Below are positions 707-64,000 of a stretch of 64,000 nucleotides of DNA, one piece after another. The notes beneath the pieces were generated by a model. It did not search any database. It was not told the DNA's origin and saw only the letters and a list, made by a program, of their open reading frames with translations. Origin of the DNA: Eukaryota sp. TZLM1-RC (lineage: Eukaryota; Protista; Metamonada: BaSk clade). The stretch lies in contig JAUPSS010000002.1 of NCBI GenBank assembly GCA_040285825.1, forward strand, positions 1,426,001 to 1,490,000, read 5' to 3'. A program made the position numbers and the translations under genes. Each line of letters opens with the position of its first letter. Position 1 is the first letter of the stretch.

Positions 707-884
707 AATAGTGAGAATTGTCAATTTAGTAACAATTCTTCACAAAAGCTTTTCTATACAACTAAGCTCATTGTAATAGCTGAAGCCGGAATGAGAGGTA
801 ATGGAAGGCCTCAGTATCTGTGTAGTAGATAGATTTTGTAATTATTCCACACGAAAATTGATTGTGTATTTATGGCCAATTTCC
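707..884 (+). mobile_element. Fanzor family-1 3' end / putative omegaRNA right end, ending about 16-25 nt before the WW-gene ATG
   Basis: gctgaagccggaatgagaggtaatggaaggcctcagtatctgtgtagtagatag...aaaattgattgtgtatttatgg matches the end of the Fanzor at 11319 (minus strand) and 22465-22561. Confidence 0.85.
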
Positions 885-899
885 TATTTAATCTCTCTA

Positions 900-2753
900 A
901 TGGTTGATTGGGTTGCAGTAGTGGACAAGTCATCATCCCGTCTTTACTACTACTCACCCAAATCTCGTCAAGCCAGATGGCTCAAACCAGAGTCTGATTC
1001 TGTGTTGTATAGTCCTGAAGCAAAGTCTCTGTTATCAAGCACTACTTCGCTTTCATCCCCACCTCCTCCTTCTTCATGCTCACCTTCAGCTCCACAGTCT
1101 AAATTATCCATTGATCTCTCGCACAAAATCAAGGCTGCCTTCTTTAAATCATCAATAGGCCAGATAGGATCTTTGATGTCACTTTTCCTCTCTCAACTTG
1201 AAGAACGGTCGCTTCCTGAAATCCAATGTTTTTCTGGTACCTTCTACAGCCACTGGAACGCATGGTTGAAACGGTGCTCTCCATCACTGACTTTGCAGTT
1301 TATATCTCGCTTTTTAGAGTTTTCTTTTTCCCTAGCTTGCTCTCTCATTTCTTGCATCGATAATGCTGAAATTAATACTGATTTTCACTCTCCACCACCA
1401 GAGAACATCTCTTATGTAATTACTCTATTTCAAAGTGTTTTGAATTTATTAAAACAACTTTATTCGGCTGATTTGTTTACTCTTTTTTGCCAAGGCCAGC
1501 TTCACCTATCAGATTCTCTTTCTATCAACACCTTACAAATTCCTAGTAATTCTATACTGGGTCGATTTCTTTCTTGTTTTGTTTCATGTATTTGTTGTTG
1601 TAATGATAATAGTGAATTTAATTCAATAGCTTCCCAATTAATTAAACTTATATTCATCAAAATTGATTCACAATGGACAGGAGCTTTATTTTCAAAGATT
1701 TTTGTTGATTTTATCGTTGATTGCTGTTTAGAATCATTTTTGGATCAAAAAACTGCTATTATGAACCTTTTTGAGCTTGTTGATTGTGATTTTTCAATCA
1801 ACTTTGATGGTTTTGATTCTTTAATTTCTCTTGTTTGTGAACTACAACTAAATTCAAACCCCCACGATTCAGCAGATTTGAACAGAACCCCATCTATTTG
1901 TTCCCCACTAAGGCCAAGTACATTTTCTCCAACATTGTCTCTATCACCAAGGCCACCTCCTTTGGTAGAGAATTGTTTTCACTCATTTGTTCACAGGAAT
2001 TCAACAGAAGGGGTCATTAATCAGTTGACTTTGGTTGACTCCTTTTCTCTTGCTACTACTGGACGTCTTTCTGATGATCTTTTATTGGGGATGTGTCCTG
2101 CTTCTGGTACTTTTTTTGATTTGAAATCCCTTGTTATTTTTGTTTCAGAGAATGAATCCAATACTTACTCTCTACCATCATATACAAATTGTGCAAAGGT
2201 TTCTATTCCAAATCCCGTAGTTCCAGTCTCAAGAATTCTGTTGACTAGGTCAAAAAGCAACGTGACTTCCCCATCATTTTCTGATTTAGATATTGTTTAT
2301 ATAAAGCCAACCCACAAATTAAAAGCTAATCTGGAGTTTTTTTCTCATTTAAATAGTGTATTGCCTAAAACCAGTACCACTAAACGGTTAGTCATTCTTT
2401 CCTTTCTCTTGGACCCTTCCACTGATTCTCCTTCTGCTGCTATTGGTCTCAGATCTGCACATTCAATGGTTAAATTATCAAAGAAATGGGAGGAAGGTCT
2501 ACGGAAATCATTTAAGCAGTACAGAAAGCAGACTTGGATTAGAGAGTGTAATGTTGCTAAAAAAGAAGGATCAACTTTGCCAAAAAAGCCAGCTGACAAT
2601 GAAAACCCTCAAATGACTGATTTTGAGGAAGATTTGTTAAGTTTATTAGTGGATTTAGAGGTTGAATTATCAAAATTTAAAGAATTTGTTCTGAATCAAG
2701 AATGTTTTTTAGATAGAGTTTTCAACGGTGAGTATAGCGATTGCCTAGCTTAA
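900..2753 (+). CDS. N-terminal WW-domain protein, otherwise unknown
   Basis: WVAVVDKSSSRLYYYSPKSRQARWLKP fits the WW consensus. The ORF-track extension 801-899 is Fanzor-end DNA, so ATG900 is the likely start. Confidence 0.7.
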   Translation: MVDWVAVVDKSSSRLYYYSPKSRQARWLKPESDSVLYSPEAKSLLSSTTSLSSPPPPSSCSPSAPQSKLSIDLSHKIKAAFFKSSIGQIGSLMSLFLSQLEERSLPEIQCFSGTFYSHWNAWLKRCSPSLTLQFISRFLEFSFSLACSLISCIDNAEINTDFHSPPPENISYVITLFQSVLNLLKQLYSADLFTLFCQGQLHLSDSLSINTLQIPSNSILGRFLSCFVSCICCCNDNSEFNSIASQLIKLIFIKIDSQWTGALFSKIFVDFIVDCCLESFLDQKTAIMNLFELVDCDFSINFDGFDSLISLVCELQLNSNPHDSADLNRTPSICSPLRPSTFSPTLSLSPRPPPLVENCFHSFVHRNSTEGVINQLTLVDSFSLATTGRLSDDLLLGMCPASGTFFDLKSLVIFVSENESNTYSLPSYTNCAKVSIPNPVVPVSRILLTRSKSNVTSPSFSDLDIVYIKPTHKLKANLEFFSHLNSVLPKTSTTKRLVILSFLLDPSTDSPSAAIGLRSAHSMVKLSKKWEEGLRKSFKQYRKQTWIRECNVAKKEGSTLPKKPADNENPQMTDFEEDLLSLLVDLEVELSKFKEFVLNQECFLDRVFNGEYSDCLA

Positions 2754-2861: not shown

Positions 2862-4320
<1,459 letters not shown>

Positions 4321-6499: not shown

Positions 6500-7261
6500 T
6501 CTGGATGAACCACCGAAAAAGAAACGAAGATTAAAAAAAGTGAACATGATGCCAACAAAACCAGAGAAACATAATTGAAGGGCACTAAAAAATGCCCCGT
6601 CGAAATTATACCTGAAAGGCCCCTTATTGGCGTTGATCTGGGACAATCTAGATTATGTGGTTACTTCATAAATGATTATCAATGTGGAATTATCCCTTGT
6701 CCAACTGGCAGAAGATACGGGACAAGACCTTCACCTAGTAAACACTCCCCCAACCAATATTCCGTTCAAAATTTCAACCAATATTTGAACCATTGGAATT
6801 TGGTCAGGAGGAAAGTGTACTTGGAAAATAATCGCAGGAAATGGAAAATAATTAAATTTAATAACCGCAGACGAAAAGAGAGACGGTTCCGAGAGAGTCT
6901 CATCAAATTTCAAAGGCTGGCTGGACATCCTGAAAAACTCTACCTTGCTAAGGGTTCTGCTAATTTCCCTTCTCATTACCGAAAAGTCAATCGATATGGA
7001 TCAGCATGGGCTTTCAGAAAATGGTTGTGTTATCAAAACGATGTGAAGCACTTGTCAACCAGTGAATTTAATACAAGCAAACTGTCAAGTTGTTGCATGG
7101 CCGAGAATATTCATACAGGCTCATGGCAGATGCGTATTTGTACTGAGTGTCAAATAGTATATGACAGAGATATTTCCGCTACAAAAATTATTCAAATAAA
7201 GAAGAAAGCGGAGTTGTGGCCGGAAAGATACAATTGCCCAGAAGCGCTGTTGAAGAGATGA
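6500..7261 (+). mobile_element. Fanzor family-3 nuclease, 5'-truncated or frameshifted; RuvC triad intact
   Basis: ORF 6575..7261: IGVDLG (RuvC-I D), SEFNTSKLSSCC (RuvC-II E + Zn), ICTECQIVYDRDISA (Zn + RuvC-III D). An NLS-like PPKKKRRLKK lies just upstream in another frame. Confidence 0.85.
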
Positions 7262-7363
7262 GTGGGGAACCTGAGCATACAGAAACAAAAACTTTGGAAA
7301 AACTGATATTTTATTTTGATTTTTTCATTTTATTTTAATTTTTTTGGAAAAACTTTTGAGACC

Positions 7364-7707
7364 GATTTACAAATGCCTTAGTAGCATTTGGTAGATCCAC
7401 TTAGATACATCAAGTCGCGAGGCTTTGTTCTGTGAAAGCACTAGGTGTATTTAAGTGAGGTAGCCCATTGATGAAGATCATGATTGTCTTTGTCAAATGA
7501 TGCTACATGTCTCTTACAGCCTGTGAGTAGACATTGAGAAAGTTCAAAACAGGGGTGAATTTCACAGGGGAATGCATGATTAGTGAAATTCACAGTGGGA
7601 AGTTTGAATGAAGGTATCAAAAAGTATTCTGATGTTGCAAAATACTCTGTTCCTTTTCATTAGTGTACAAGACACCTATACCATTGTTATAGACATTACC
7701 TGTCAGA
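7364..7707 (+). ncRNA. Putative structured omegaRNA / right end between the Fanzor stop and the PSMD9 ATG
   Basis: Successive inverted repeats: 7364-7376/7384-7397, 7398-7411/7444-7457 (G-U compatible), 7507-7519/7521-7534, 7555-7565/7583-7593 (perfect 11 bp). Confidence 0.55.
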
Positions 7708-8608: not shown

Positions 8609-10123
8609 TCATTTATTTTTCTTACCTTTCTTCTTTATTGTTTCAATTGTGAGATGTTTTTTCGGAAAGCCAACACCTAATAGCAGATCAGCAACTCTAT
8701 CAACTTGATTACCTTGAATTTGGACGACTTCTTGACCTTGAAAAGTGGTAACATTAGCAGCAACAGAAAAGGATTTTTTAAACATGTTGGCCATTTCCTC
8801 CAAGTTTAAAAGAAAAATATTTAAATTCGTTACTACAGTCACCACATGACCCCTAATCTTGGTAGTCTTGACTTGAACATTTTCTAAACTTCCCTTTTTA
8901 AAATAATTCTCCCCATTTTTCACGACCAGATAAAACTTTTTAGACCTTTGTTTAACATCATTCAGAAAAACATCAAAGCTAATGGGTGATGCAATGTTCA
9001 CCTGTATGCTGAATACATCGATCAATTGATTGACAATCACTTTCCTTTTGTCTTCTGGGAGTCTAAAACTCTTACAGATTTGTTCCAAGACTCTTTTCAA
9101 ATTAACTGCTGAAATTAATTTGTCATTTGTGAAATATTCAGAGTAATTTTGAAAAATACTATAATGAAATGGAGGTAAATAAAACTGCTCAACATTAGTG
9201 ATCAATGAAGTATCTTGAGGGTTTGATTCGACTGGGTCAAAAATCTGTTTGAATTCCAACGACTTTTTCTTAATTAATGACAAGTTAGACAAATGAATAG
9301 CAATCACACCATCAGAATTGGTTAAATCAAGCAAATTTTCAAGTTTCAGTGATTCGATTTGTCCCATGAGCTCCTTTTTCGAAAATTTCAATTCATCATC
9401 CAAAATTTGATTGTAAAGACTGACAAAACTTGACATTAACAAATTATTTGAAAACTTTTCATTCGCCTTAACCAAAGAAAAACAAAGAGCAGACAATTTT
9501 AATTCTTCAGTAATTGTAACAGCTTCTAAAGATTCATCTTCGTCTTCACCGAAACATTTGGAAGTATGAACGAATTGAAAATACTCACAAAAAACGTCCC
9601 CTACAACATTAACCACTATCAACAAAGTGCCACTCCGCTCATGAATCGCTTGCCCTCTTTTCTGGAGTACCCCCACCCCAACTGGTTGTTCAATGGACGG
9701 AAGGGTAATTGAAATGGGATAGTTGAAGGGCAGGGTGGTAGAGAGAGAAGTGAGGTCATGAACACCTTTGCTGAATAGATTAGCCCCGTTTTGAAGGTAT
9801 TGAATTGTTGCAGGGTTTATAGTAACTCGAGGCAGAAGCTGAGGGAAAAGAGAAAGAAGTGGAAGTGAAGGAACATAGCAATGTTTGTTGAATTGAATAA
9901 AAAGAGGTAAAGGTGAGGTAAAGCGTTCCATGGCAGCGACTACAGGGATTGGGGACGAGGACGACTTTGGTAGAGCTTCGAAGAGTCCTAACTTCTCTTT
10001 TTTGCATGGGAATAATTGGTTAACAGTTTCCTGATCAAGGTTGAGGTACGACTGTATTGAGAAGACATAATTCTTAAGGAAAGAGCCTTTAAGTGGATGA
10101 TTAAAGTGGATTGTGTGAAACAT
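8609..10123 (-). CDS. EIF2D: eIF2D/ligatin-like translation factor (PUA + SUI1)
   Basis: YVPSLPLLSLFPQLLPRVTI...LQNGANLFSKGV (pre-PUA/PUA) and C-terminal SUI1 VQIQGNQVDRVADLL; likely start MFHTI at 10123. Confidence 0.85.
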   Translation of the reverse strand: MFHTIHFNHPLKGSFLKNYVFSIQSYLNLDQETVNQLFPCKKEKLGLFEALPKSSSSPIPVVAAMERFTSPLPLFIQFNKHCYVPSLPLLSLFPQLLPRVTINPATIQYLQNGANLFSKGVHDLTSLSTTLPFNYPISITLPSIEQPVGVGVLQKRGQAIHERSGTLLIVVNVVGDVFCEYFQFVHTSKCFGEDEDESLEAVTITEELKLSALCFSLVKANEKFSNNLLMSSFVSLYNQILDDELKFSKKELMGQIESLKLENLLDLTNSDGVIAIHLSNLSLIKKKSLEFKQIFDPVESNPQDTSLITNVEQFYLPPFHYSIFQNYSEYFTNDKLISAVNLKRVLEQICKSFRLPEDKRKVIVNQLIDVFSIQVNIASPISFDVFLNDVKQRSKKFYLVVKNGENYFKKGSLENVQVKTTKIRGHVVTVVTNLNIFLLNLEEMANMFKKSFSVAANVTTFQGQEVVQIQGNQVDRVADLLLGVGFPKKHLTIETIKKKGKKNK

Positions 10124-10173
10124 TGAAACAAAACGGGAAATTCCCATAAGTACACAATCTATTTTCGTACAGA

Positions 10174-11294
10174 TAATGTATTTATTGAATTTGCACACTT
10201 AATTAAATTAAATCATAACTAATGGGACGACTATCATTGAACCAAGATTTCCTCTACAAAATCTTGATTTGCTTGCTGTCTAGCTAAAGCTTCTCTAATT
10301 CGATTGAAAAACCGCGGTAATCTATTAATAATGGCAAATTGAATCCGTGAACGCCATAAAAAAATATCAAATCTTTTCATTGTTTTTTCTTTCACCATTT
10401 TTTGGAAGTCATCCAAAAAAGTTTCTGCTTCAACTGATAATCTTCCATTTATCGAAAATGGAAAAGCAATAAAAACCAGCTGTGTATTTCTATCGATATT
10501 TGCATCTTCAATTTCTTTATCATATTTTCTATGTTTTTCTTTTGCTTTAAAATCCAGAGCAGCCACAGGATTAAGTTTTCTTCTGTGAACCAAAGTATCG
10601 TTTGCAACATTACATGAGACAAAGTCAACAATAGCTTCAGAATTATCAATCCAATCACAGTATACATCACCTCTATCATCAGAACCAAAATTATTCAGAG
10701 AAAGTGTTTCTTTCAGCAGGGGCTCTTTGATACACGATATCCTTGCAGTTTGTGCCATATTGAAAACAGTGTCTCTAACAGCATCATGTAATGAAGAACG
10801 ATAAGTTATCAATTTAGAGCAATTTAGAGCATGGCGCAAAGTGAGTTGAGGTGAATTCGAACAAATACATTTTTCTTTTGATAATAATTGGTTAATGGGG
10901 ATGTTCAAATATAATCTCATTTTTGTTACAAATGCTTCATTAGTAGCACACAATCCAAATCTTCGTGGTACAATGGTTACAAAAAGTGAAGAATCTGACA
11001 CCTTGTTTTCACAAACACCCTTTTCCAATAACAATGAGTGAAGATCTTGATTTAAAACAGCCGAGCTGCAAATATTATTATAAAGATCTTTTTCATACAT
11101 TCCAGTCAATCTTTTCTGTAATGTTCGAAGAGTGTACTTCAAATTTAAAACATTTTTTTCTGGAATATTGCCATTGAATGATTGGGGAAAACATCGACCC
11201 CATTTTTCTACATCAATTCTTGAAATTTCTTCATTTAATGCAAAAACAGTGGAACTTTGCGTTGTCATCAATAAATCTTCCCAATCTGCAAATC
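10174..11294 (-). mobile_element. 5'-truncated RLE non-LTR retrotransposon family A, inserted in a Fanzor right end, 11-bp TSD
   Basis: ORF 10234..11271: CxC...HALNC (Zn), RSSLHDAVRD, KEP, RGD..., VDF, KEKHRKY, FPFSINGRL = PD-(D/E)xK RLE domain; TTTCGTACAGA at 10163-10173 and 11295-11305. Confidence 0.9.
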
Positions 11295-11318
11295 TTTCGT
11301 ACAGAATATTTACAAAAA

Positions 11319-13590
11319 CTATTTACTACACAGATACTGAGGCCTTTCATTACCACTCATTCTGGCTTCAGCAAATGCAAACATATTCAGACAAGCCAGC
11401 TTATTTCTATTGAAAAGCTTTTTTGAGCCTTTGTTACTTCGTTTGCAACTCTCACTGTTACAAGCTAATAAACCATGACATGTAGTAACAGCAGTTGTTT
11501 CTCTTCTATAGAATCTGGGATTTGATACTCTCAAAAACGTAGCAACTTTTTCAAAACAAACAGGACACTTTGCTGTGAAAGCTCCATTAATCATCAATAC
11601 TTCAAATCCATTTCTTTTCAGAAATTGAATCCATCCAATGCCTCTAGTAGGTCTCTGATGTTTCAAATTCTTAGAAATTCTTTTACCATAATCAGCCATT
11701 AGTATTAAAGTGTCTTTTGGGTTGCCAAGCTGCTGAACAAAATTTTTTAACAACCAACTTTCAGTCTTTTGCTTGTGAACAAAAGCTTGCATTTTATGAA
11801 TGCTCCACAAGTCAAGACTGTAAATGTCAATTGTCAAAAAAACTTGCCGAAGTTTGGCAACCACAAAGTTGGAAAAATCTGTAAAGTTGCTGAATTGGCA
11901 ACAAATGTGGATAATTCGGTGTTTGTATCTTCAATTGTCATTTCGTTAGACTCTATCATTTGGTTCCTGTCGTAATCTACCTCAGTATACTTTGTCCCCC
12001 ATCGTTTTTGTTTTTCTTTCATCCTACTTTTCAAAGCCCAGGACATCTGATTCATTCTCAACCATTTGTACTTCTTGTCTTGATTCATCACCCGACTATT
12101 TCTTTGCTGTTCGGTTTCATTCTGAGGAACCATGGCTTATTCTTGATCAGTCTTTTTACTCCCAGACTATAATAAATCACGTTTTCCAGGATCACAAACA
12201 ACAATTCGTTTGCCTAGTGAAGTATCAACATCAACATCATTAATACATAAATCAGAAATACTAGCATTGTTGTTTGGCTTATATTTCTGACCTTGTAAAT
12301 CCCGACGAACAAATTCTACTGCAATATTAAATCCTTCTGTGTGTATAATGTTGTTGAATTTGTAAATTCTTTGTTTGAACATTGGTTGGTTTAAATCGAG
12401 AATATTAGACCATAAGTCAAATTGCTCAAATGGTTTGAATCTATGAACTTGGGCTTGTGTATTGACCATTTTTAATTTCTCTACAGACAACAAATCGTCC
12501 ATAAGTGTTTGGCTAATAATTGTCCATATTGTTCTTGTGTTAATAGGAAGATATCCTGGATCTACAGTGGTTGAAACAGGAGAAATATGATAAGGTTTTT
12601 TCTCTCTACTGGAAATATATTGGGCAATTGTAATTTCTGGTTTTAGGAATAATTGAGGATCTTTTTCAACAGCGTCTGCAGGAAAATGTATATCCACTGA
12701 AATTATGTTGCCAACTAAATTCTCGTCAGTGACCAAATTCTCAATCTGACAAGTAAAAGGCTCAATAAGACCTTCAAATATGTTTCTACGTTCATTATCT
12801 CTTATATCATGTTGTTCACATAAATCGAAAAAATCATCATTCAGAAGTTCTGAAATATTTTCAGGATGATGAAACAAAGAACTCAAGCAATCTCTATCAT
12901 CAACTAAAAAGATGTTTTTGAATTGACGAAGCCTAAATCTATATAGTGAAATAATGGTAGATAATGGCGTTGAGTACCCACCCAGCTTGTGCATTTCTGA
13001 TAACACATTTTCCACATCTACCTTGTCAAAATAATCATTAATAAATCGATTAATTTGTTTTTCATAATTTAATTTCAAATTATTCTCAAAATTGGCAAAC
13101 ATTACTGGGGCCATATACTCAGGTCGTCTACTGAAGCCATCAGTTGGAAATTGTGGAAACTGTTCAGGCTTGTGTCTTGAGTCATCAAGATAACTCAATG
13201 CTTTGTTTAACTTTTGTTGCTCAAAGGTAGTTCTCAAAGTATAAACTCCTTCACCATAACCAAAGTCTTCAAAATCCTGTGGAAATGCACTTCTTGGTTT
13301 TACCATTTTTTGCCCATAAAACTTAGCATAAAGCTTAGGAATATATAAAGAATTCTGGCCATTAATAATTCATATAATTTGACAGACATTCGTGGTAGTA
13401 ATAAACTACGTTCAAATCGGTACTGTAAATACAACCTTAAGCAACATGTGGTGTGAATTCGTAATTGTTGAAATTTTGAAGCAGTTTCTCTTAATTTGAG
13501 TATCACATTTGAATGTTTAACCATTGAGTTGACGGTTGCTCGTATGGTTTTGTAAGATGATAAAATCATTTTATCTTTCTGAAACAGCAC
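11319..13590 (-). mobile_element. Near full-length Fanzor1 family-1 pseudogene (frameshifts)
   Basis: Segments 13300-13590, 12167-13306 (IHTEGFNIAVEF WED motif; IVVCDPGKRDLL RuvC-I), 11834-12133 and 11319-11864 (ILMADY, PTRGIGW, CPVC, HGLLAC..C, FNRNKLACLNM, GNERPQYL). Confidence 0.9.
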
Positions 13591-14099
13591 GAAAAGTTTT
13601 AGACAAAAGATACAATCATGAAGCCCATATTGAATTAAATTTTTGAAATTACACCATCAATTGTATTTTTTAAGCAATAATTCCTCAGCCTTTTGAGTCA
13701 TATGAAGATAAAGTTTTCGTCGTTTCTGTCTAGCACATAGATTTGACGGTAAACTTTTAACGAACTCCTTGAATATTACATTTTGTTCTGTATCAATTGG
13801 TACAGAAGTTGAATCAATGCTGGGTGAATGGCCACTTTAATGGTTAGTACAGGGTTTCCCAGCAGTTTTTGAGGTAAATTTTCCGCTTTTTCCTGCCTGA
13901 GTTCTTGTCTTACAATTTTTGAAGGAGGGGTTGACTTTACCGTTGACTTTCTCTTTTTGAGCCTACTATTGTCACTGAGTGTATCACTGAACTGGTTTGG
14001 ACATAATGTTATTATTGCATAATAATCAATTTCTTCTTAGTTCTGTAGCATTTACACCGACAGTGATTTCGGTCCCTGGCACAATCAGGGACAAATATG

Positions 14100-14590
14100 T
14101 TTTCATATATATAGATAGGAGAAAATTTTGAATACAATGCAACACGTATAAGCCACTTTCATTGGGGGTTTGTCGTTCTCCTACACCCATTGCACAAGAT
14201 CAAATATCGTGAATGGTCAAATTGTTTTACATTTTCTAAAGTATTTTAGACATAACAATGATCCAACCAAGGGTCGAAAAAGATGCATTCTTTCTGCTCA
14301 ACATCAATAATTGCTAAAGTTCAATATAATTCATAACAGGCTTGTTGATCTAGTGCATCATCCAATGGTATGATTCGGAGTTTATTTTCAAAAACAATTC
14401 GATCAATTGCTCATAAGCATTGGAGATGATCTTTGATTTCATACCTTCAGGGCTAATGTAAACAATGATATCCAAATTATTATAATTATTCAATAGTTGC
14501 TCAGCCCAAAAATCCATCACATCATCAGCAATCCATGTTCCTGGTTTTAAACTGTCTTAATTAGAAAAATATATGTTGACAGGATCAGGG
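14100..14590 (-). pseudogene. Ulp1/SENP (C48) cysteine protease remnant upstream of the Fanzor
   Basis: Manual translation: SLKPGTWIADDVMDFWAEQL, RIIPL, Y*TLAIIDVEQKECIFFDP, matching the LxPxxWLxDxVIxF and HWxLxxID...(Y/F)D motifs. Confidence 0.6.
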
Positions 14591-15009
14591 TTTGATTCAA
14601 CGTCTTTATCTATTGTTAAAGCAACAGAAAAAAGGGTTGATTGACAGTAAATCATCGTTAACAAAGGTTGAAATATTTACGACTCTGAATGCAGTATTAA
14701 GGAAGGAAAATAAAAGGCCAATCAAGTTTTCAGAAAATTCATCAAAATAATCAAGCCATCCACCAAAAGTTGTGTTACCATTAAACAACTTATTGATTTC
14801 ATGTAAAGTAATATACACATATATCTCAAGCTGGATTTTATAGACAGTTACAACAGCTGTAGAATTACGGTCAGGATAAGCAAAATCAAAATTAAACCTC
14901 CAAAATTGATCAATTGACACATGAAACAATTATAGAGTTCAGCAGAAAGGGAAGAGGTATCCACTGTAGAGTTAACAATATTTAAAACAGATTCTCAAAA
15001 CCTAGTTTT

Positions 15010-15170
15010 GTTTTTTGCATTTTCAAGTCCATTCCAACAATGATTTCAAAGGCACTTTTAGCTATTGGTGTAGAATATGAACGTAATGCTGTGAGTAGGT
15101 TCAGTAATAGTGACGCTTGTTTGGAGGATATTGAATTCTAGATGGTTATTTTTATCTCAATAAATATTCC
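15010..15170 (+). mobile_element. RLE family B 3'-terminal stub
   Basis: About 135 bp near-identical to 87-219, ending DACLEDIEF* followed by TCAATAAATA. Confidence 0.85.
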
Positions 15171-15659
15171 AGTTTTTTAAAAAAAACCTAGTTTTATGAG
15201 AATTAGCAACCTCAGCTTGTTGAAATTGGTTTAAAAAGGTGTTATTACAACCAATATTGGAAATGTCAATATAAGTTGTAGCAGCTTTAGTATTATCTTT
15301 AATATTGAAAACGTTATTTTCAATTCCTTGGAATTTGGCATTATTTAAAGTCAAAACAGTTTTGGTTAACTCAAGGTGACCATCAGTAGCATAACTCACA
15401 AGTTCTAAATCAATAATAGAATCAATAGTAAAAGTTGAAACATCAAAATCAACAATATATTTAACAAGGGTAACCAGAGATGAATTGTTAATACCAACAA
15501 GAGTTTGGGACAAATGACCAATAAGTAAGGATCCAGCCAAAGTAATCTCTCAATTATCAACAGTAAATAGGGGATCACTAACTGAACAAATTACAGTGGG
15601 GGTGGTGAATGGCGATTGGTGGGTAGAAAAGAGAATGGAGAAATCAAGGAGGGGAACTT

Positions 15660-16450
15660 TGTCCATATTTTTAGGAGAAATTTTTGATCCGCATTTGCAA
15701 ATCAATTTATGGAGCACGTAATCGGGCCAAATGAAACATCGAAGGCGCACTGTACAATAAAATGTAGTATTATCTGAAAGAAGACCATAAATTTGAGGTA
15801 TTTGAGTAATTAAACACGAAGAGGAACTGTTTTGGACATCTAACAAAAAATTGCGAAGGCGGGATTATTATTTTTGGCCGAGCCAAGACGAACATCAAAA
15901 TCCAATCCTCGAAAAACTATTGTAAATTTTGTTGCAATTTTTTAGCACAATATTTCAAAAGTGTTTACTGGCAAAACAGGATTGTATTTTCTATTTTTAA
16001 GGAAATGGTAAAACTAATTCCTGATTCATTCTCTTCTTTTGGGAAATTTTCTGAATCTTTAGCAATAAATTGTTTTGATGTAGGGGAGACAGGTTTTGAG
16101 GATGTGGAGTTTTATTGTGTATTTTATGTTTTCATATTTCTTGCTGAATGAATAAAATAAACCATCAAGTTCAAATAAGATATTCAAATTTACTAGCGTC
16201 CTAAGTGGTATTTCCTTTACATTATCAGGAAAGCATTTGGTTCAAATTTCAGGGGGCAAACAATCAAGAACTTCTCCAAGGTCTCTTAAATAGTTATTAC
16301 TTGTAGAATTCAACAAGTCAAGATCATTTGGAAAACAGTTGCAAAATTCAAAAACAAATTTTTCCCTCCACAAAGAAAAGCAGCGTGACAGAGAATAGAC
16401 GATTTAGTGAAATTAATACCACCAAAATTGGATGAAAAAATACATGACTT
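15660..16450 (-). mobile_element. Degenerate RLE retrotransposon fragment (post-RT region)
   Basis: FSSNFGGINFTKSSILCHAAFL at about 16440-16375 and SSSCLITQIPQIYGLLSD..VRLRCFIWP..LICKCG, homologous to the family-B MRCFLWP..LICRC motif. Confidence 0.6.
15961..16142. repeat. About 185-bp dispersed repeat, second copy at about 34279-34461
   Basis: gtgtttactggcaaaacag...gatgtagggga...ggttttgaggatgtggagtttta...ttttatgttttcatatttctt is shared, roughly 85-90% identical by eye. Confidence 0.8.
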
Positions 16451-21415: not shown

Positions 21416-21900
21416 CAGTTAGAACACTGATGAAATAAATCAAATTTCTTTTTCAAAACTTGAGGCCTTTCTTTTTTTAACTCCTATAAAGAATTTGCGA
21501 CTTTGCTCTCTTGCAGGGTCTCGCGCTAGGTACTCTATGTTTCTTTATATTTTCATCTTCTTTTTCCTCAATTGCAATTCTACATTGTGAAGAAAGTTGT
21601 TTGTTGCATTGCATTGCATTATGATTGTAAATTTTCATGGTTCAGAGTTTTCTTTCAGAAAATTAATTGTAGCTCCCTATCCTTAACCATTTTGTTTTGA
21701 TAAATCCATGTATTTTGCTTTTTACAATTTCTGATTGGCTTTGTTCAGAGTGTTTATCATTTTTTGGGGAAACCTATATTTTAAAAGTGAATTCCCTAGG
21801 TCTTGATTCCTTGATTTCACTTGGGGGAGGATTTTGTATTGATCTGAAGTCGAGAATCTTGTCCATAGTTGTTCAATACCTTGAAATTATTCAGATCCTC
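21416..21900 (-). mobile_element. Fanzor family-2 remnant with shortened right end abutting the UBE2J ATG
   Basis: EEKEDENIKKHRVPSARPCKRAK and RPQVLK match the remnant at 4058-4320; DNA 21500-21570 aligns to 4210-4281; upstream limit approximate. Confidence 0.75.
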
Positions 21901-22079: not shown

Positions 22080-22570
22080 TAAACGAACTGCAAGAATCTT
22101 ATGTATCAAAGAGCCTCTGCTAAAAGAAACACTGTCATTAAATAATTTTGGTTCTGATGACAGAGGTGATGTATACTGTGATTGGATTGGGAACTCTGAA
22201 GCTGTTCCTGACTTCGTCTCATGTAATGTTGCAAATGACACTTTGGTTCAAAGAAGAAAACTTAATCCTGTAAGTGCTTTTGAATTTACAGCTAAAGAAA
22301 AACATAGAAAATATGACAAAGATATCGAAGAAGCTAATGTTGATAGAAATAGACCACTTGTTTTTATTGTTTTCCCATTTTCGATAAATGGAAGATTCAG
22401 TAACAAAGGCTCAACAAAGCTTTTCAATAGAAATATGCTGGCTTGTCTGAATATGTTTGCATTTGCTGAAGCTAGAATGAGTGGTAATGAAAGGCCTCAG
22501 TATCTGTGTAGTAGATACTTTTTGTAACTATTCCGCACAAAAATTGATCGTGTACTTATGGGGTTTTTCT
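22080..22570 (+). mobile_element. Chimera: RLE family A endonuclease fragment fused in frame to Fanzor family-1 C-terminus and right end
   Basis: ORF 21988..22527: ARILCIKEPLL...FPFSINGRF (family A) joins SNKGSTKLFNRNMLACLNM...GNERPQYLCS (Fanzor) at about 22398. Confidence 0.85.
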
Positions 22571-22938
22571 CCTACTATTAGCAAAACATTGGCTTATTCA
22601 AAAACATCCCTTTCATTGAAATAAAGTCAATCTCTTGTATCTCGTCATTGATATAGCTGTAAAGTTTCATTTAGCACTCTGACTTAGAAGTTAACGCAAG
22701 GCAAAGAACCCTAACTAACCATTGGAAATGTTCAAATCTTGAAGGAGAATTCCGGTATTTAGCGATGTCCTTCCAAAGTTGAAACCATAGTGAACTCAAG
22801 AGTTGAGGCAATATTGTGTAGTCAGTTATTGCTACGCACATTGATTTCATTGTCAGTGAAAATTGTAATCATTTTAAAATAATAAAAAACATTCAATATC
22901 AATTCATAAACAAATAAACTTTATAATAATACAAAAAA

Positions 22939-24750: not shown

Positions 24751-24822
24751 CGGCTAAAAGCACACCAATGTCAAATAGTAGTAAACCAGTTGAGAATACT
24801 GGTGGATGAAGATGAAAATGGA
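24751..24822 (-). mobile_element. Solo Fanzor family-2 right end abutting the PH-gene ATG
   Basis: Aligns to 3978-4057, including exact aatgtcaaatagtagtaa at the same 16-nt offset from the start codon, and ggatgaagatgaaa. Confidence 0.85.
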
Positions 24823-24832
24823 TTTTTACAAT

Positions 24833-27390: not shown

Positions 27391-27720
27391 TTGAAATGGT
27401 GTATTCGAAAAATGCAAAGATATGATTGTACCAAAAAGGTAGAATGTGGACTTCTTCATACACTCATCAACATGTATGGTACCCCTGAAGAAACAAATAT
27501 TATTTTAGGAGATAATGACAGAAAGAAAAACAATTTAAAGCATGACAATAGTACACTAGGTTTTTGTTGGTGTAAATTCTTCACAAGATTTGGATTCACT
27601 GTCTTACTTTCAGAAGAAAAACAAACATCATAGAAGTGTCCAAGTTGTGAAGAAAATGTTCCAACGTTCTGGAAGATACAGAATCCAAGATGATGGAAAA
27701 ATGATGAAAGGAAGTATTGG
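27391..27720 (+). pseudogene. Fanzor family-1-like remnant
   Basis: YGTPEETNIILGD..KNNLKHDNSTLGFCWCKFFTRFGFTVLLSEEKQTS*KCPSCEENVPTFWKIQNPR parallels 11319-11864. Confidence 0.75.
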
Positions 27721-28029
27721 GGTTTATTAAAATGTCAGTCAAAAAATTATCTAAGTGGAAGAGAAGGAGAACCTTGTTTTTGGAAAACGAATCAGGTGGC
27801 ATTTATTAACTTCAAGAAGAGAGCTGATGTTGTATTAGAAGGGAGAGGGACATCAGTTTATTTGTACTATCTGAGCTTTTCATTTGAGATGCATACCTTC
27901 GCCAAGCATCATTCATATTTATTACAAGAACTTTCATGCTTGGTGAGATCGTCCACAGACGTTCTAGAATCCTCGAATAATTGGCCACCAATCTCAGTGA
28001 GACCATTTCTCCTCTAGAACAATACGTAG

Positions 28030-31000
28030 TTTTGAAGCTGGTTTCTTTGTGGTCTCTGGAACGCTTCTGGTCTTGTTCCATAGTAGTCCTCACTAATTGC
28101 AATTTCAACCTATTTCAGTGATGCAGAAATGTCTCTAGACCATACTTGATTACATTCCGGACAACTGAAATAGGCGTTGTGAACTTTAACTTCACCATCA
28201 ACTTCTCGATAGATCTTTTGGTTTAGCATCTTGCAGCAGTTCACCTTTGCAGATGTCATACATTCATCTACCTTCTTCACATTAGCAAATGAACGTTGTA
28301 ACAACTTGAGAAACGCCTTGTGGGGTGTTTTCACTTTTTGACGTGGTGTACCACCTTCTCCATTGCCAAACCAAACCTTTACTTCTCGAGCGTCTGCAAA
28401 TTTTCTTTTTTTTTTCACTTTGTTGATAATTGAGCTGAATCTTTTCTGTTTTCTTATAAAGAAGCCAAATGTGTTTCTCCGCAAATCTTTTCGAGCACTC
28501 AGATATAATTGCTGCTTTAGCAATCATCGTCTTACGTTATTACTTTCATAGTCCTTGTAGTCACCGATAGTTGATATTTCAAGCAGATAATGGTTCAATT
28601 TGTGCACGTCATCAACATCTATTTAGATGAGTGGGTCAGTGAAGCGGAGTGATTGATTTTCCTTGCTTTGGTGCCATGAAGATATTGGATACGGTTGGCC
28701 CTGAACATGTTCCAATGCTGGAACCGCATAGATTTGAGTGGTTGGGGTCGATGGCCCAGAACACCATTTCCGTCTCATCATCAGGTGCCTGCCACTCAGT
28801 AGCTTTTGGTTTCTGGCGAGGTCTTGGCCGTTCAACCTTGGCTTGCAGGGTATGTTTTCTATTCTGGGTGGTTTCGTAGTAATCAAGTTGCCGTCTGGAT
28901 CTCTTATCAGCAGGGTTGGGCAAAAGCTAACGTACTAACACTAAACTACAAAGTACTTTAGTTGCACTAAAACTACATTATGCACATCTTAGTCACACTA
29001 AGGCTAAACTAATCTTGATGTTAGTGTACTAACGCTCAACTAACTTGGACTAAACTAAGACTAATATGAAAAAACAAGAAACAATTTAATAAAAAAACTA
29101 CTATTAGAAATACTGACAAATAAATAGTCATTCCATATTCAAATCAAAATCATTTTCCAACCATGATTTTAGACACAATTGATTTCTAACCATGTCATCA
29201 GACAATCTGTTTCGTTTGGCAGAAACAACATCTCCTGCAATCGAGAACATTCGTTCACAGGATACTGATGTGGGCTGTATAGCTAAAAAGTCTTTTGCAG
29301 CGGAAGCTACTGAAAGGAATCTATTTTCATTGGTTTTCCACCACAAAATTGGATCTTCACACCAATCGATGGGACCTTCGTTCAGGTACCTCTCCAGTTC
29401 ATCACTACATTTCATACCTTTCTCGAGTTGCAACTTTTGAAGAAAAGAGACCTTTTGAGATACATTTCTTGATTGTTGATTCTCCTGTTGCTGCTTTTGA
29501 GACACTAGCGATTTCAACTGCTCTTCAAACTCACTTCTATGAAGTAAAGAAGACGCATCTGGTCTTTTAAAACGTGGGTCCAGTACTGTGCCTGTATAAG
29601 CTGAGAAGTCATACAACAAAGCAATATAACTTTGAAACTTGTCACACATACTGTTCACAGCTGTGACAAGCCATTCAGCGGCGTTTGATGAATAAAAGTT
29701 CAGCAAATGTGTATTTAAGTGGTCTAAAATGGTTAAGACCAGGGCAATAGTCGGATTGCTCTGCTTAGATAAAGTGACAGTCGCGTCATAAAACGGCTTC
29801 AAGAGACCAATAATATCGTCCAGGACAACTAGCTCGTTCTCGTCCATAATTAAGTCAAATCTATTGTTCATATATTGTTTTGTTATGTTGTTTCCCAATT
29901 TCTCTGGCTAGTGTTCTTCTAGAAATTGATTCAGCAGATGAATTATAGAAGTTAAGTAAACTGCGAAATTCAGGTGATTCGACAAAGCCCAAAGGAAGAC
30001 ATTCGAGAATAATGAGTCTTATTAACTGACGACGAGCTTCTTTTCGTTCATCTGACGTGAGGCCTAAGGAAGGAAGTTTACGGCGAACAAATGAATTAAG
30101 AATTGGTTGGGCAGATCGGGTTTTCTCTCTCCAGGAAGGATGGAACTTGTCAAGATGGTATTTAAGCGACGATTGGGAGGTTTTCACTGACATTGAAGCG
30201 GGATTTCGGCACAGACGGCAGTACTTCTTATCATCAGCGACGTATAAAAGTTTGTGGCCATCCCATGTTTGTCTAGGAGAAAGCGGTGCCAGCTCAGTCT
30301 GAGTACCACTAGTGCTCGTGGTTGTATCATCATCCGATACTTCGATTGGTGAATCAGTTCTGGGTAATTTGGTGGGGTTTGGGAAGTTATCACCTGATTC
30401 CATAGTTGAAGGGGTACAAAGTGTATATTTTCAACCAATAGTCTTTAAAGTTGAAACTTATTTCTCATATTCCTGAATTTAGCAGTATCAGATCACTTGA
30501 AATTTATGTGTTTAATTGTTTTTAGTGTAGTGCGAGTTAACTTAGGTTTTGAATAAATAATGTGCTAAAGCTAAACTATGAGATGTCTTAGTCGCACTAA
30601 AACTAGACTAAAGAAATTTCAGTCTTTAGTGCACTTAAACTTAGTTTGGTTGAAGGTTACCGGACTAAGTTAACCCAGTGCCCAACCCTACTTATCAGCC
30701 AAGGCTTCTCCAGACAATTTCACTCGTGTTGCTTTTGGGTGGGGTGAGAAAGTTATACGGACACTATCACCATTAGAAGACATGGTGTAGTCATTAGGTT
30801 TTGTTCTAAAAAATAAATAAGGGTTTTTCAAAATTGTTTGTGATGTTTTTTTGGAGATAAAATGGTCGAGAACCCATGTGGAAAAGGGAACAAAAGCAGG
30901 CTTCAAGCTAGCGATAGGGGTGAGTCTATGTCGTTTAAAAGTATGTGGAAGGGCTTGATCGAGATGGTTTTGGATTGTTAATCCGCAACGAAAGATGTAG

Positions 31001-35539: not shown

Positions 35540-36746
35540 CATAATTGTTGTTGGTGGTAGATTTTTGGCTCTTTCCAATTTTGGCAGGTGAAAACAGTTT
35601 TCGAGAAACGGAGTTGTTGATAGAGCGCGCAACAGAACGTAAGGAACGAAATTGTGGCTCCTGTGTGTTTTTTCCGGCAGAGTGATCAGTCCCTGATTGA
35701 ATCGAGTTCTTCTCGCGCTTTGACGTTGTCGATCATTTGCAGCGCTACACGATAGTCTGCTTCGTTTACAGCCTCTGCTGCTTCCCATATATAACCTTCC
35801 AGGCCTTTTTGCTTGTAATGTTTGCAGAAGTTTGCACACAAATGTCTCAGACAGTAAGCATGCGCTACATCATTTTCAAATACCTCGTTTACAGTTTTTT
35901 AAATAGATGGGTGACGATCAGACACAATAACAAGATGAGGATCTTTTAGGCTTTCCTTCAATAAAGATAGAAAATACTTCCAGTTGACATCGTTTTCAAT
36001 ATCAACAATCGCATATGCAAGAGGAAACAGTTGTCCTTCTGCGTCAACAGCGGTGGCCGAGAGCAAGGTTCCCCCAGATGGACTGTGAAGATGAGCCCCA
36101 TCAATACTGACGAACTTTCTACTGTGTACAAAAGCCTTGATGGCATAGCTCATCATTACAAAACAGCGAACAAAAACTCCTTCATTATCTTCCACGTGAA
36201 AGACACTTCCTGGATTGGCATACAGCAATTCTTTCTTATAAGTGTTGAGAAGAGCAAACGATACTTCCACATTGCCAAACAGTCTCTTTTTAAGAAGAGT
36301 CACACTTTTCCATCGAACTGTGTAGGATTCGATTTCCACTCTGTAGATCATTTTAAAGTCAGTAAAGAGATTCGAGGCGTTGTAACTTCTGCTTAAGTTC
36401 ACTGTTTCGATGAAGAAAGGATGCTCGACAATGAAAACGGCATTAGCGTTTTTGTTCGTCAGTCGTTGAAGTTTTGTACAAGTATGAGGTGACAAGGAGA
36501 TGATTGTCCACTCTTCATCAGAAACCTTCTTGCACGTAACAGAGAATTCACAGGACATTTGGCAGCAAGAAGCTCGACATCGTAACTTGTCACTATGAGT
36601 GTATTTGATCTCACGTCTTTCAAGAAGACTGTCGTGTATAAGGCGTAGTTGAAAGTTTTTTTATCCTTGAATGTAGACTCTTTCTTCAGGGCAGCGATAT
36701 TTAAAGAATACATTATAGAGCAGCGGTGGTATAAAAACAATTATGG
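35540..36746 (-). mobile_element. MULE/Mutator transposase pseudogene
   Basis: CEFSVTC..HTC, NPGS, SIDGAHL, AVDAEGQLFPLAYAIVDIEN..W..FL, IVSDRH, then HAYCLRHLCANF after a frame break. Confidence 0.9.
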
Positions 36747-36782: not shown

Positions 36783-37643
36783 TATTTATTGAATTTGCAC
36801 ACTTGATTAAATTAAATCATAACTAATGGTACGACTATCATTAAACCAAGATTTCCTCTACAAAATCTTGATTTGCTTGCTGTCTAGCTAAAGCTTCTCT
36901 AATTCGATTGAAAAACCGCGGTAATCTATTAATAATGGCAAATTGAATCCGTGAACGCCATAAAAAAATATCAAATCTTTTCATTGTTTTTTCTTTCACC
37001 ATTTTTTGGAAGTCATCCAAAAAACTTTCTGCTTCAACTGATAATCTTCCATTTATCGAAAATGGAAAAGCAATAAAAACCAGCTCTGTATTTCTATCGA
37101 TATTTGCATCTTCAATTTCTTTATCATATTTTCTATGTTTTTCTTTTGCTTTAAAATCCAGAGCAGCCACAGGATTAAGTTTTCTTCTGTGAACCAAAGT
37201 ATCGTTTGCAACATTACATGAGACAAAGTCAACAATAGCTTCAGAATTATCAATCCAATCACAGTATACATCACCTCTATCATCAGAACCAAAATTATTC
37301 AGAGAAAGTGTTTCTTTCAGCAGGGGCTCTTTGATACACGATATCCTTGCAGTTTGTGCCATATTGAAAACAGTGTCTCTAACAGCATCATGTAATGAAG
37401 AACGATAAGTTATCAATTTAGAGCAATTTAGAGCATGACGCAAAGTGAGTTGAGGTGAATTCGAACAAATACATTTTTCTTTTGATAATAATTGGTTAAT
37501 GGGGATGTTCAAATATAATCTCATTTTTGTTACAAATGCTTCATTAGTAGCACACAATCCAAATCTTCGTGGTACAATGGTTACAAAAAGTGAAGAATCT
37601 GACACCTTGTTTTCACAAACACCCTTTTCCAATAACAATGAGT
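36783..37643 (-). mobile_element. 5'-truncated RLE family A copy, 11-bp TSD
   Basis: Nearly identical to 10179-11039; TTTTAATGGTA at 36772-36782 and 37644-37654. Confidence 0.92.
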
Positions 37644-42876: not shown

Positions 42877-42969
42877 GATAGGCCCAATAGATCAAAAAAG
42901 AAAGAAATGGTGTTGGAGAAAACACAACATTAATAATATTAATTAATTCAATAATTTTGTTTATTGACT

Positions 42970-43765
42970 AATATTTATTGAGCTAAAAAAAATCTATCTA
43001 GAATTCAATATCCTCCAAACAAGCGTCACTATTACTAAACCTACTCACAGCATTACGTTCATATTCTACACCAATAGCTAAAAGTGCCTTTGAAATCATT
43101 GTAGGAATAGACTTGAAAATGCAAAAAACAATTCTATTTAACCAGAAAGTGGAATTCATTGTTTTACCAGACCTATTCAGTAACACTTTATTGAAATTTT
43201 CCAAAAAGTGCAACCCTGAAGGTCCAATATTGCCAAAAAGAGAAATTGCAAACGGCACAAACTGATATTTCACATGTTCCACTCTACCTAACTGTGCAAA
43301 AGGTTCTTCATATTTTTTTATCTTCTTTTTTTCGGCGTTAGATAACGGCGAATCAGCGGAATACACTAAAGGAGCAGCAGAATTTTTGCAAACATCAACT
43401 GAGACAACATCTACAACATTGAGAACACCATCGATCCTTGGAGCTACTAAGACTGCCCTTCTTTTACCAAAGGAATCATCAGTTTGATCTGGAGATAGCT
43501 TACGTACTAATGGCTCAATAAATGCCTCTATATTGAAACTTTTGCACATGGCATATAATTGATCACGAACTGAGTCATGAACAATTGAGCGATAAGTTAT
43601 AAAATACTTACAGTTTAAAATATGGGAAAGCGTAACAACACTCTTGCAGCGGCAAATTAAATCATTTGGTAAAGAACAAGGCCATAGAAAACATCTCATT
43701 CTCATTGCAGTGGTTCATTGGTGATCATTAAGTAGAAGGCCATAAATGTTGGGAATTTGGGAGAT
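42970..43765 (-). mobile_element. 5'-truncated RLE retrotransposon family B
   Basis: ORF 42998..43705: CRC..HILNC, RSIVHDSVRD, IEP, VDVVSVD, AEKKKIKKY, FVPFAISLFG. Confidence 0.88.
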
Positions 43766-45801: not shown

Positions 45802-46088
45802 TGAATAGCATGGCGTATGCCAACTTTAAGGCGTGAAAAAGAAGGAAAAATTTGTTTGTTTTACTGAATCAAATGACTAACTGAAAATGCTAAAGGTTCA
45901 GAGCGTATATGAAAATAGACTGTCAATGTGTGATTTCTCATCAAGTTTACAACAACTGAGGAGGTATACATGATCTCACAAGGAAGAAACAAGTTTTTCT
46001 ATTTTAAGATAAACGGTTCAAGTTTTTCTGACAAACATTCAAATTGGTTTTTTAAATCAAAATAATAACATTAATAATATTTAATTTT

Positions 46089-47065
46089 ATTTTATTATTA
46101 TTATAGAGTGACAACATACAGCTAAGAGCTAGAACTTATAAGAAGAAAAATTCTCCACATCTACCCTTACACTTCTATATATCTTTTTGAATATCTGAGA
46201 CAAGTATTTGGGAAAGCTTCGAAATAAAGCAAAGATGATTCTATTACGCCAAATGGAGATGTTAAATAATCTGTTACGTTCAAGACATAACTTGGCAAAA
46301 GAATCAAGAAACTTTTGACCTATCTTACCAATACTTCCAAAAATCGAAATTGCAAAAGGAATGAAGACAAAAGAAGAGTATAAATTTTGATTAAGATTCC
46401 TCATTACTTCATCATACAACTGATTTTTACGTGCCTCCGCCTGACACAGATGCGAATTTTCATCATTAAAAACTGAAGACAAGTACACTTTTGCACAAGG
46501 GTCAACAATAGTAAAATCAACAACCGCCTGAGATGAGTTAGTAAAGGGTACAATCAAATCTCCACGACGACAATTGAAAATATCGTTATCACTGTAGTGT
46601 TTCAGTAGAGGTTCTATTTTCCCATTAAAACCATGACACCTAAACATCTCATATGTCACATCACGAACTGAATTGTGTAAGATTGACCTGAACTGAAGGA
46701 ACTTTTTACAACTGACAATATGTTTGAAATCAGCTTTAGGTCTTTTAACACAGCAACAAACACTATTATCCAATAGTTCTGAGGGAAATAATCCAAGGCG
46801 AAGTCGCATATTCACTTTCCACGCATCATTGTCGAGATGAAGACCAAATGGTCTAGGCTGTTGTGTGATAAGAGCACTACTTTGTTGTAAATCAATCAAA
46901 AAGGCTGCAAAAACGGGATTCTCTGACTTTGTCACACTAAGACGTTTAGCAAAATCCAAGTCCTCGAGACTATGTAAGATAGAATTTTGTAATTTAACAA
47001 CATAAAATCGTAAAGAATCAACAGATTCTCTCAGGAATATCATCAACCTTAGATGGAAAGCACTT
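46089..47065 (-). mobile_element. 5'-truncated RLE retrotransposon family C, candidate 12-bp TSD
   Basis: ORF 46129..47046: MRLRLGL, CCC..HIVSC, LHNSVRD, RRGDL, VDFTIVDP, AEARK, FIPFAISIFG; ATATTTAATTTT at 46077-46088 and 47066-47077 (AT-rich, could be chance); (TAA)n-like tail. Confidence 0.85.
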
Positions 47066-47229
47066 ATATTTAATTTTCATTAATATAAATTTATATTAAT
47101 ATAAAAGTCTATGGTAATTTGTCTCTATCAATATTCTTGAGCTGAGGTAAGCATGTGAGGCCATATAGTAATTGTAATTAATTGACCCCAGAATTGATGA
47201 TACAATTATTTGGCAATTCGATTCTTTCA

Positions 47230-51274: not shown

Positions 51275-51599
51275 TTTCTTCATTGATAAATACTTGTTTT
51301 TGTTTCTTTCAATTCATAGATTTTGCTGATTGGTGATAACAACAATGATATTTGAGATTTAAGTGTTACTCTACGACAGAATCAGTGGTCAACACGCTCA
51401 AACAACCCGTCTTGTTCTAATTACAATACTTTGCTTTGAATGCTCCACTGTTTTTCAGAAATTTACATCTGACTTTAAGTCTATCAGTATAATAAACGCT
51501 CATACAACAGATCAGGCCATTAAGAGACTTGAGTGGCGATTTTCAGTAGCTTAAGTAGTTCTGTTTCAGACACATTGAAGAAAGTGAAAATTGTCTATT

Positions 51600-62800: not shown

Positions 62801-64000
62801 ATCGACTATAAAAGACCTCGATTATCCGCTGATGACCCTATCAATAAAATGTCTATCATAGCTTTTCTTTTGAAATACCAAACTTGGGATAAATACGGGC
62901 AAAAGATAGCTAATAAAGGCTTTGAAGCACCAGGTTAATCATATTGGACCAGAGCCTTCATGATAGCTACCCAGCTTTTCGGAGAAGGTCAAACAGAGAT
63001 AACCCAAGATAGAATTAAAGATCTCCCCAAACATATATGTGACGAGATCACAAGGGACACAAATCAGCCTTTGGTAAAAATTGACCCAGCTATAACAGAT
63101 AAGCTCGATACGTCCCGGTACCTGTAGTAAGACAAGACGTTACATCTCAGGAAGAAACAACTTTTTCTCAACCCATGGAAAGCGAAATTGGAGAAGATAT
63201 AGAGTTGAACGAACCAGTCGTTGGAGAAACGGCTCCTCCTCAACTTTCAGTAAGAACCTCTTCTTCTGACAGACCCATGCGTATTGAGGACCTTCAATCC
63301 TCAAGAAGAGCTATCGACATGAGCATAGCCAGTAGCCTTCATAGACAAATTGACTCACGGTTTAAGGACATCGACTATAAAAGACCTCGATTATCCGCTG
63401 ATGACCCTATCAATAAAATGTCTATCATAGCTTTTCTTTTGAAATACCAAACTTGGGATAAATACGGGCAAAAGATAGCTAATAAAGGCTTTTGAAGCAC
63501 CAGGTTAATCATATTGGACCAGAGCCTTCATGATAGCTACCCAGCTTTTCGGAGAAGGTCAAACAGAGATAACCCAAGATAGAATTAAAGATCTCCCCAA
63601 ACATATATGTGACGAGATCACAAGGGACACAACTCAGCCTTTGGTAAAAATTGACCCAGCTATAACAGATAAGCTCGATACGTCCCGGTACCTGTAGTAA
63701 GACAAGACGTTACATCTCAGGAAGAAACAACTTTTTCTCAACCCATGGAAAGCGAAATTGGAGAAGATATAGAGTTGAACGAACCAGTCGTTGGAGAAAC
63801 GGCTCCTCCTCAACTTTCAGTAAGAACCTCTTCTTCTGACAGACCCATGCGTATTGAGGACCTTCAATCCTCAAGAAGAGCTATCGACATGACCATAGCC
63901 AGTAGCCTTCATAGACAAATTGACTCACGGTTTAAGGACATCGACTATAAAAGACCTCGATTATCCGCTGATGACCCTATCAATCAAATGTCTATCATAG
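53436..64000 (+). repeat. Tandem array of a 569-bp unit, about 18.6 copies, running off the window end
   Basis: Unit starts ACGTCCCGGTACC at 53436, 54005, ...; MESEIGED ORF starts recur every 567-571 bp; units differ by only a few SNPs and indels. Confidence 0.98.

Follow-up and report, generated by a model that had tools for sequence, protein, structure and literature searches.

Ends of a Fanzor1 family lie just before host start codons in a Skoliomonas-like metamonad, with a possible role for the element tail as core promoter

What brings the end of a Fanzor to within a few nucleotides of a host start codon? The question arises near the left edge of a 64,000-nt stretch of DNA (the window; forward strand of contig JAUPSS010000002.1, positions 1,426,001 to 1,490,000), where the ATG of a host WW-domain gene (900-2753, plus strand) lies 14 nt after the AATTTCCT of a co-oriented transposon end. 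The window is gene-dense eukaryotic DNA of 37% GC in which transposon remnants are clustered, and its closest named proteins are those of Eukaryota sp. TZLM1-RC, TZLM3-RCL and GEM-RC1. TZLM1-RC appears in the description of Skoliomonas (PMC11603281), and repeats are given as 28-55% of Skoliomonas genomes (PMC11316075); the host was treated here as a Skoliomonas-like metamonad.

The remnant before the WW gene (707-887, plus strand; blastn, tblastn of P0005 and alignment) is a 5'-truncated copy of a Fanzor1 family, hereafter family 1, consisting of decayed last codons and a non-coding tail of ~55 nt that closes with a decayed terminal palindrome (872-887, plus strand). By blastn it matches 11459-11295 at 75% and 22395-22561 at 77%. 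The heptamer AATTTCC occupies 878-884 (plus strand), 15 nt before ATG 900, and the WW domain begins at residue 3 of the open reading frame that starts there (Pfam E 0.0012, below the curated cut-off). Another ATG, at 872 inside the palindrome, is out of frame and opens an 11-codon frame overlapping the WW start. On the minus strand the same end, co-oriented once more, precedes a host eIF2D-like gene (8609-10123; E 6.8e-6 against human eIF2D), whose ATG 10123 lies 11 nt after AATTTCCC and 12 nt downstream of AATTTCC (10142-10136). The terminal segment at this locus (10133-10173, minus strand; tail 10173-10135) retains an intact palindrome, with six of six pairs formed, one of them G.U. A second in-frame ATG at 10147, within the element end, is the start given in the database record, and the alignment with human eIF2D fits ATG 10123 and ATG 10147 alike.

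The copy at the eIF2D locus is a long broken element (~14620 to ~10133, minus strand), whose tail is split by a 5'-truncated non-LTR retrotransposon (10174-11294, minus strand) flanked by an 11-bp duplication at 11305-11295 and 10173-10163; this insert has no Pfam match, and its class was assigned from zinc-knuckle and endonuclease-like motifs. Beyond it lie the broken Fanzor1 coding region and the first part of the tail (11295-13644, minus strand; DPG, zinc finger and RN at RuvC-III), delimited by tblastn with full-length relatives, followed by upstream remnants of the same element (13905-14619, minus strand) that comprise a 2A-like peptide (14619-14580), Ulp1-like fragments recognised by eye only and a basic linker. 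These remnants align weakly with the relatives (tblastn E 0.49 and 0.01), and a separate search with them returned no significant match. A 130-aa open reading frame upstream of the 2A-like peptide (15157-15549, minus strand) may belong to the same element; neither it nor P0130 30-560 had a match in the protein atlas at a cut-off of 0.9. The third family-1 copy (22395-22572, plus strand; blastn and alignment), also 5'-truncated and with a decayed terminal motif, is an orphan: the next feature is the 3' end of a PH gene, which faces it from 366 nt away. All three copies in the window are thus broken. The first-pass annotation had described co-oriented ends just before the WW and eIF2D start codons and a copy near 22527-22570 with no gene behind it, and these placements, together with its coordinates for all family-1 ends, are correct.

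Its assignment of the family to the Fanzors also holds. A DPG at RuvC-I, a zinc finger and a Glu just before it are features given for Fanzors (PMC10711439); the open reading frame at 13369-12167 ends VVCDPGKRDLL, the DPG recurs in P0005, and a pattern search places the catalytic Glu before the zinc finger in 13 of 16 family-1 rows, the window copy having Gly and two rows being unmatched. Full-length relatives align over 13644-11322. Across 87 rows the RuvC-III position is D in 50, N in 13 and another residue in 2, with 22 unmatched; throughout the Skoliomonas clade the motif reads RN, not RD (window sites 11322-11420 and 4061-4150, both minus strand), and most non-Skoliomonas matches are RD-type Fanzor1-like proteins. 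A nuclease-dead reading of RN was rejected in view of GtFz1 (Xu 2024, PMC11423790), which is described as active with a D-E-N triad, that is, with the same Asn at the third catalytic position, a precedent by which RN is compatible with Fanzor1 membership; GtFz1 differs from family 1 in that the window copies of the latter are broken and known from sequence.

Several relatives contain a PolB-type exonuclease domain, some of them with Ulp1 and a 2A-like peptide in addition. A polyprotein ordered as Ulp1-like protease, 2A-like peptide, PolB-type exonuclease and Fanzor1 can be recognised in P0118, P0130, P0133 and P0023, relatives of the element at 14619-11322 (minus strand) of the window; our literature search found no report of this architecture. 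The full-length relatives are Fanzor1-like proteins of 600-1300 aa, which argues against an IS607/Fanzor2 assignment, and the window ORFs and relatives scanned contained no serine recombinase. Beside the Fanzor genes no Rep or helicase domain was detected except a DEAD-type helicase in gene model P0110. With left ends missing or disrupted, no TIR or TSD such as a DDE transposon (MuDR or Mariner, for example) would have was found at a plausible boundary (the longest flank repeat, 9 nt, lies inside an ORF), and no inverted match longer than 8 nt that could represent an ATIR was found upstream of any copy. The family-1 tail is conserved between copies in alignment, and Rfam returned no match for positions 1-30000. 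A pattern scan of metagenomes detected Fanzor1 at two loci (L001:2964-5204 and L002:2964-5204), each an intact 746-codon frame, with flanks that differ between them; the contigs are AT-rich, probably belong to giant viruses and have no blastn match to the window. A viral scan for Fanzor1 loci found 0.

How much DNA lies between the element and the gene depends on where the element ends. AATTTCC is the loop and 3' arm of the palindrome ATGGGA-ATT-TCCCAT, which in the eIF2D copy folds with a z of -2.1 (11 of 200 shuffles were equally good) and is decayed in the WW and orphan copies; shuffles of the entire tail fold as well as the tail itself (z -0.2 and -0.6). We compared the orphan end with public contigs (three DNA runs of low depth from one sample and one study). 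Among the matches listed (11 of 15 loose-end rows), seven rows lie behind the tail, and five of these reach the terminal motif, four as AATTTCCC and one as AATTTCTC, while two end before it; exact AATTTCC is present in four of the five readable ends. Two of the contig ends could be matched through four G, one continuing with four C and AT, which keeps the palindrome, and the other with three C, so that covariation is seen in one of two. Gene models read through the motif as well, P0001 as YGNFP and P0004 as YLWEFP, corresponding to two frames of the eIF2D end. A search for the 16-nt end motif with 3 mismatches allowed returned the eIF2D copy only. No empty site was found among these contig matches; one candidate, a contig starting at 22562, proved to be a plain match to 22562-22712.

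The first-pass annotation had instead ended the element at TTATGG and placed its insertion just upstream of a native, initiator-like AATTTCC. Some observations lean that way: GGAATTTCC occurs at the TE-free EEP gene, where, as had been pointed out, it lies at the same distance (18917-18909, minus strand, in a 61-nt spacer and 14 nt before ATG 18894), the TTATGG-AATTTC spacing varies by 1 nt and in base, and a C-rich promoter motif is known from a related group (PMC3916229). For this 9-mer, which was picked after the fact, the chance value is 0.005. Yet of the 13 genes without family 1 or family 2 before them only EEP has AATTTCC upstream (chance 0.075), 16 of the 19 occurrences in the first 53.3 kb lie elsewhere, the motif is complementary to the ATGGGA of the element, and the orphan, at no promoter, retains it in decayed form. 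An insertion upstream of a host AATTTCC is therefore disfavoured, and we consider it improbable; nor does AATTTCC stand as a recurrent, fixed-position motif of TE-free promoters, where, in this small sample, a looser CC is what recurs (10 of 13). Because the motif recurs in contig ends and gene models, follows nearly all readable element copies, pairs with ATGGGA and precedes only one of 13 other genes, AATTTCC looks like part of the element and not its host target, and we infer a boundary after the palindrome, at about CCCAT, 9-12 nt before the ATG.

Of the three family-1 ends, two are thus followed by a co-oriented ATG within 30 nt, namely at 11 and 14 nt. Since 1.0% of non-genic position-strands are this close, naive chance gives P(>=2 of 3) = 0.0003; insertion into native spacers gives 0.02 and insertion into promoter-containing native spacers only gives 0.13, so the proximity exceeds naive expectation but not the strictest null. 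Taking all Fanzor ends together, three of the ten located only by a stop codon or fragment end, 5 of 10 are within 30 nt (P 0.052 under the strictest null), against 0 of 9 non-LTR 3' ends, two of them placed approximately (Fisher P 0.022; for family 1 only, 2 of 3 versus 0 of 9, P 0.045). One somewhat unlikely explanation is survival only, in which insertion is blind to genes, short spacers and later deletions bring the ends close to ATGs, and the tail has no promoter role. It accords with native spacers of 14-304 nt in the window, with the value of 0.13, and with the orphan and four other Fanzor fragments that are not ATG-proximal, but it does not account for the absence of non-LTR ends within 30 nt in the same spacers, and a host promoter would hardly fit into the remaining 11-14 nt, which means that the gene must tolerate or use some part of the tail.

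The spacers themselves are unevenly occupied, TEs being present in 8 of 11 promoter-containing spacers and in 0 of 6 convergent ones in the window (P 0.009). The non-LTR element in the Fanzor tail has a second copy at 36783-37643 (minus strand), and the 99% identity of the two, each with an 11-bp duplication, indicates recent non-LTR activity; that this retrotransposon is site-specific for the Fanzor tail is unsupported, the second copy sitting elsewhere with a different 11-bp duplication. Further non-LTR families occur at 42935-43714, 46085-47076 and 15953-16156. Remnants of hAT and MULE transposases (29128-30430 and 35899-36660, both minus strand) lie within a 10-kb FKBP spacer, and a tandem array at 53300-64000 repeats a 569-nt unit ~19 times, with 98-100% identity between most units and a 110-aa ORF in many of them. 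A Fanzor/TnpB-like ORF at 6575-7707 (plus strand), with an RD motif and DLG, differs from family 1; the Nas2 ATG follows it in the same orientation after 446 nt. Three extra Fanzor fragments are found in 27397-28936 and 51390-51542, two of them tail to tail and one facing a gene stop.

A second family places its ends at start codons even more closely. All three family-2 ends stop at an ATG, namely those of a CDC5-like gene (3978-4315), a ubiquitin-conjugating-enzyme gene (21416-21570) and the PH gene (24751-24830), all on the minus strand, and this 0-nt gap in 3 of 3 cases weighs further against survival only. The genes behind these ends (3977, 21415 and 24750, minus strand) all begin ATG-(T/A)-CTTCT, and two of the ends fold into a hairpin that takes in the ATG, a hint that targeting may be sequence-specific or that the element may supply the start. 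Independent convergence of the two families on promoter-proximal positions had been proposed. The DNA ends are indeed unrelated (no blastn match), but the families have the RuvC-III Asn in common, and a C-terminal-region tree of 39 rows (4 of 43 candidates, which lacked the motifs, were dropped) groups family 2 with family 1 and the other Skoliomonas rows, with weak support (69/85); with both families in one weakly supported clade, independence is not established.

The exact placement of family 2 and the narrow family-1 gaps of 11 and 14 nt, possibly with 7 and 14 nt at contig ends, would also fit active targeting, in which open chromatin or initiation factors would draw a transposase to transcription starts, where it would insert in a fixed orientation, the palindrome still being the element end. 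Transposable elements that target transcription start sites with precision are known (PMC7337890). We regard this as quite unlikely for family 1, however, as its copies, 87-95% identical over aligned stretches, are old enough for selection to have acted, and the transposase is putative only.

Of 56 Skoliomonas gene models examined outside the window, 45 have the RuvC-III motif, and 3 of these run on by over 32 residues. In P0001 a family-1 C-terminus continues into a DHHC gene of the same orientation, 19 codons past the terminal motif, and if its Met is the true start the gap is ~58 nt, beyond the 30-nt limit and in keeping with survival only. P0087 extends into 700 aa of unrelated sequence and P0004 into a short tail. 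Two contig ends are followed by candidate starts, at 7 and 14 nt, and one end has no ATG in 21 letters; as an ATG falls within 22 nt of 31% of non-genic positions, these carry little weight. To the eye, one contig flank resembles that of P0001; the two may represent one locus. Among 14 candidate host gene models, none had an N-terminal extension from the element tail at E <= 10, which is a weak test. ATG-proximal Fanzor tails are a real feature of this DNA, in a sample that, at three family-1 copies, is underpowered. The literature search found no account of Fanzors ending at host start codons, the supplementary locus tables of PMC10432273 and PMC3627910 being outside its scope, and the sections considered of 10.1101/2023.06.13.544871 and PMC10530073 do not mention any.

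What, then, would allow such insertions to persist? Host leaders have a C content of 28-31% at -15 to -6 versus 12-23% elsewhere, and CC occurs at -20 to -5 in 10 of 13 (shuffle P 0.005, for an interval chosen after looking), but comparison with more distal intervals (14 of 26) gives no significant difference (P 0.15). In the diplomonad Spironucleus a C-rich motif lies ~10 bp before the start codon (PMC3916229). The CC of the palindrome ends at -12 and -16, where the host leaders carry this weak C-rich signal. We therefore favour, with a probability of about 0.42, the reading that family-1 tails persist since the tail replaces the displaced core promoter of the host gene. The element would have inserted into a very short 5' leader, and the palindrome would have put a C-rich run at the core-promoter position, so that the insertion was tolerated; the simplest account is that a short leader can absorb an insertion whose tail supplies the promoter signal. 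As only 11-14 nt of host DNA remain, transcription would have to begin within them or in the element tail, and it probably starts in or just after the palindrome, since the out-of-frame ATG 872 would otherwise disturb WW translation; that the tail ATG is in frame at eIF2D but not at WW likewise points to a start downstream of it. The element body may later have become a landing pad for other transposons.

Promoter replacement may also be coupled to homing. Fanzor RNAs reach 14-15 nt into the variable flank and may serve restorative homing (PMC13565253, PMC10432273). In an intact copy that behaved like the tested Fanzors, the guide would consist of the host leader and start codon, and a guide covering these would direct the nuclease to cut an empty allele and restore the insertion. 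Extended to Fanzor1 in compact eukaryotic genomes, metamonads and red algae alike, such elements would occupy 5' leaders as an intron-like safe harbour, provide the core promoter from their 3' tail, re-invade empty alleles with a leader-and-ATG guide and make housekeeping genes dependent on them, a generalisation that we consider speculative and unlikely.

Comparison with described elements sets family 1 apart in several respects. Like Fanzor1 elements in general (Bao & Jurka 2013, PMC3627910; SpuFz1, Saito 2023, PMC10432273), it has a DPG at RuvC-I, a Glu just before a C4 zinc finger, a short conserved non-coding tail after the stop and many partial copies; unlike them, it has no TIR or TSD that we could find, an Asn at RuvC-III and polyprotein relatives, and its ATG-proximal placement has no mention in the pertinent sections of those two papers. 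The Helitron2-Fanzor1 elements CRe-1/2/3 of Chlamydomonas (PMC3627910) likewise have a surplus of 5'-truncated, 3'-intact copies, and their 3'-terminal hairpin recalls the 6-bp palindrome that is intact in one window copy and decayed in two; this is a resemblance only, as no ATIR, RepHel gene or TSD was found for family 1 and its putative hairpin is shorter. CMe-1A of Cyanidioschyzon merolae is similarly an unclassified, TIR-less Fanzor1 of a compact genome, but it belongs to a different eukaryotic supergroup, and its section in PMC3627910 is silent on gene-near placement. Transposons that target transcription start sites (PMC7337890) also insert near Pol II starts and do the gene little damage; they were shown by de novo insertions, whereas family 1 is known from old fixed copies in fixed orientation. 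Insertion close to transcription starts is thus already known for other TEs, to which Fanzors that end at host start codons would add a further case.

Judged from its sequences, the exonuclease-fused Fanzor1 clade with the Asn triad may in its own right be of interest as a source of genome-editing enzymes. What Fanzors do biologically is given as unknown in the sections of PMC10432273 and PMC10530073 that address it. If the tails act as promoters and the guides cover gene starts, this would explain how Fanzors persist in gene-dense genomes, a cultured protist that carries many copies could be used to test Fanzor homing directly, and a first handle on the core promoter of the Skoliomonas-like lineage would be gained.
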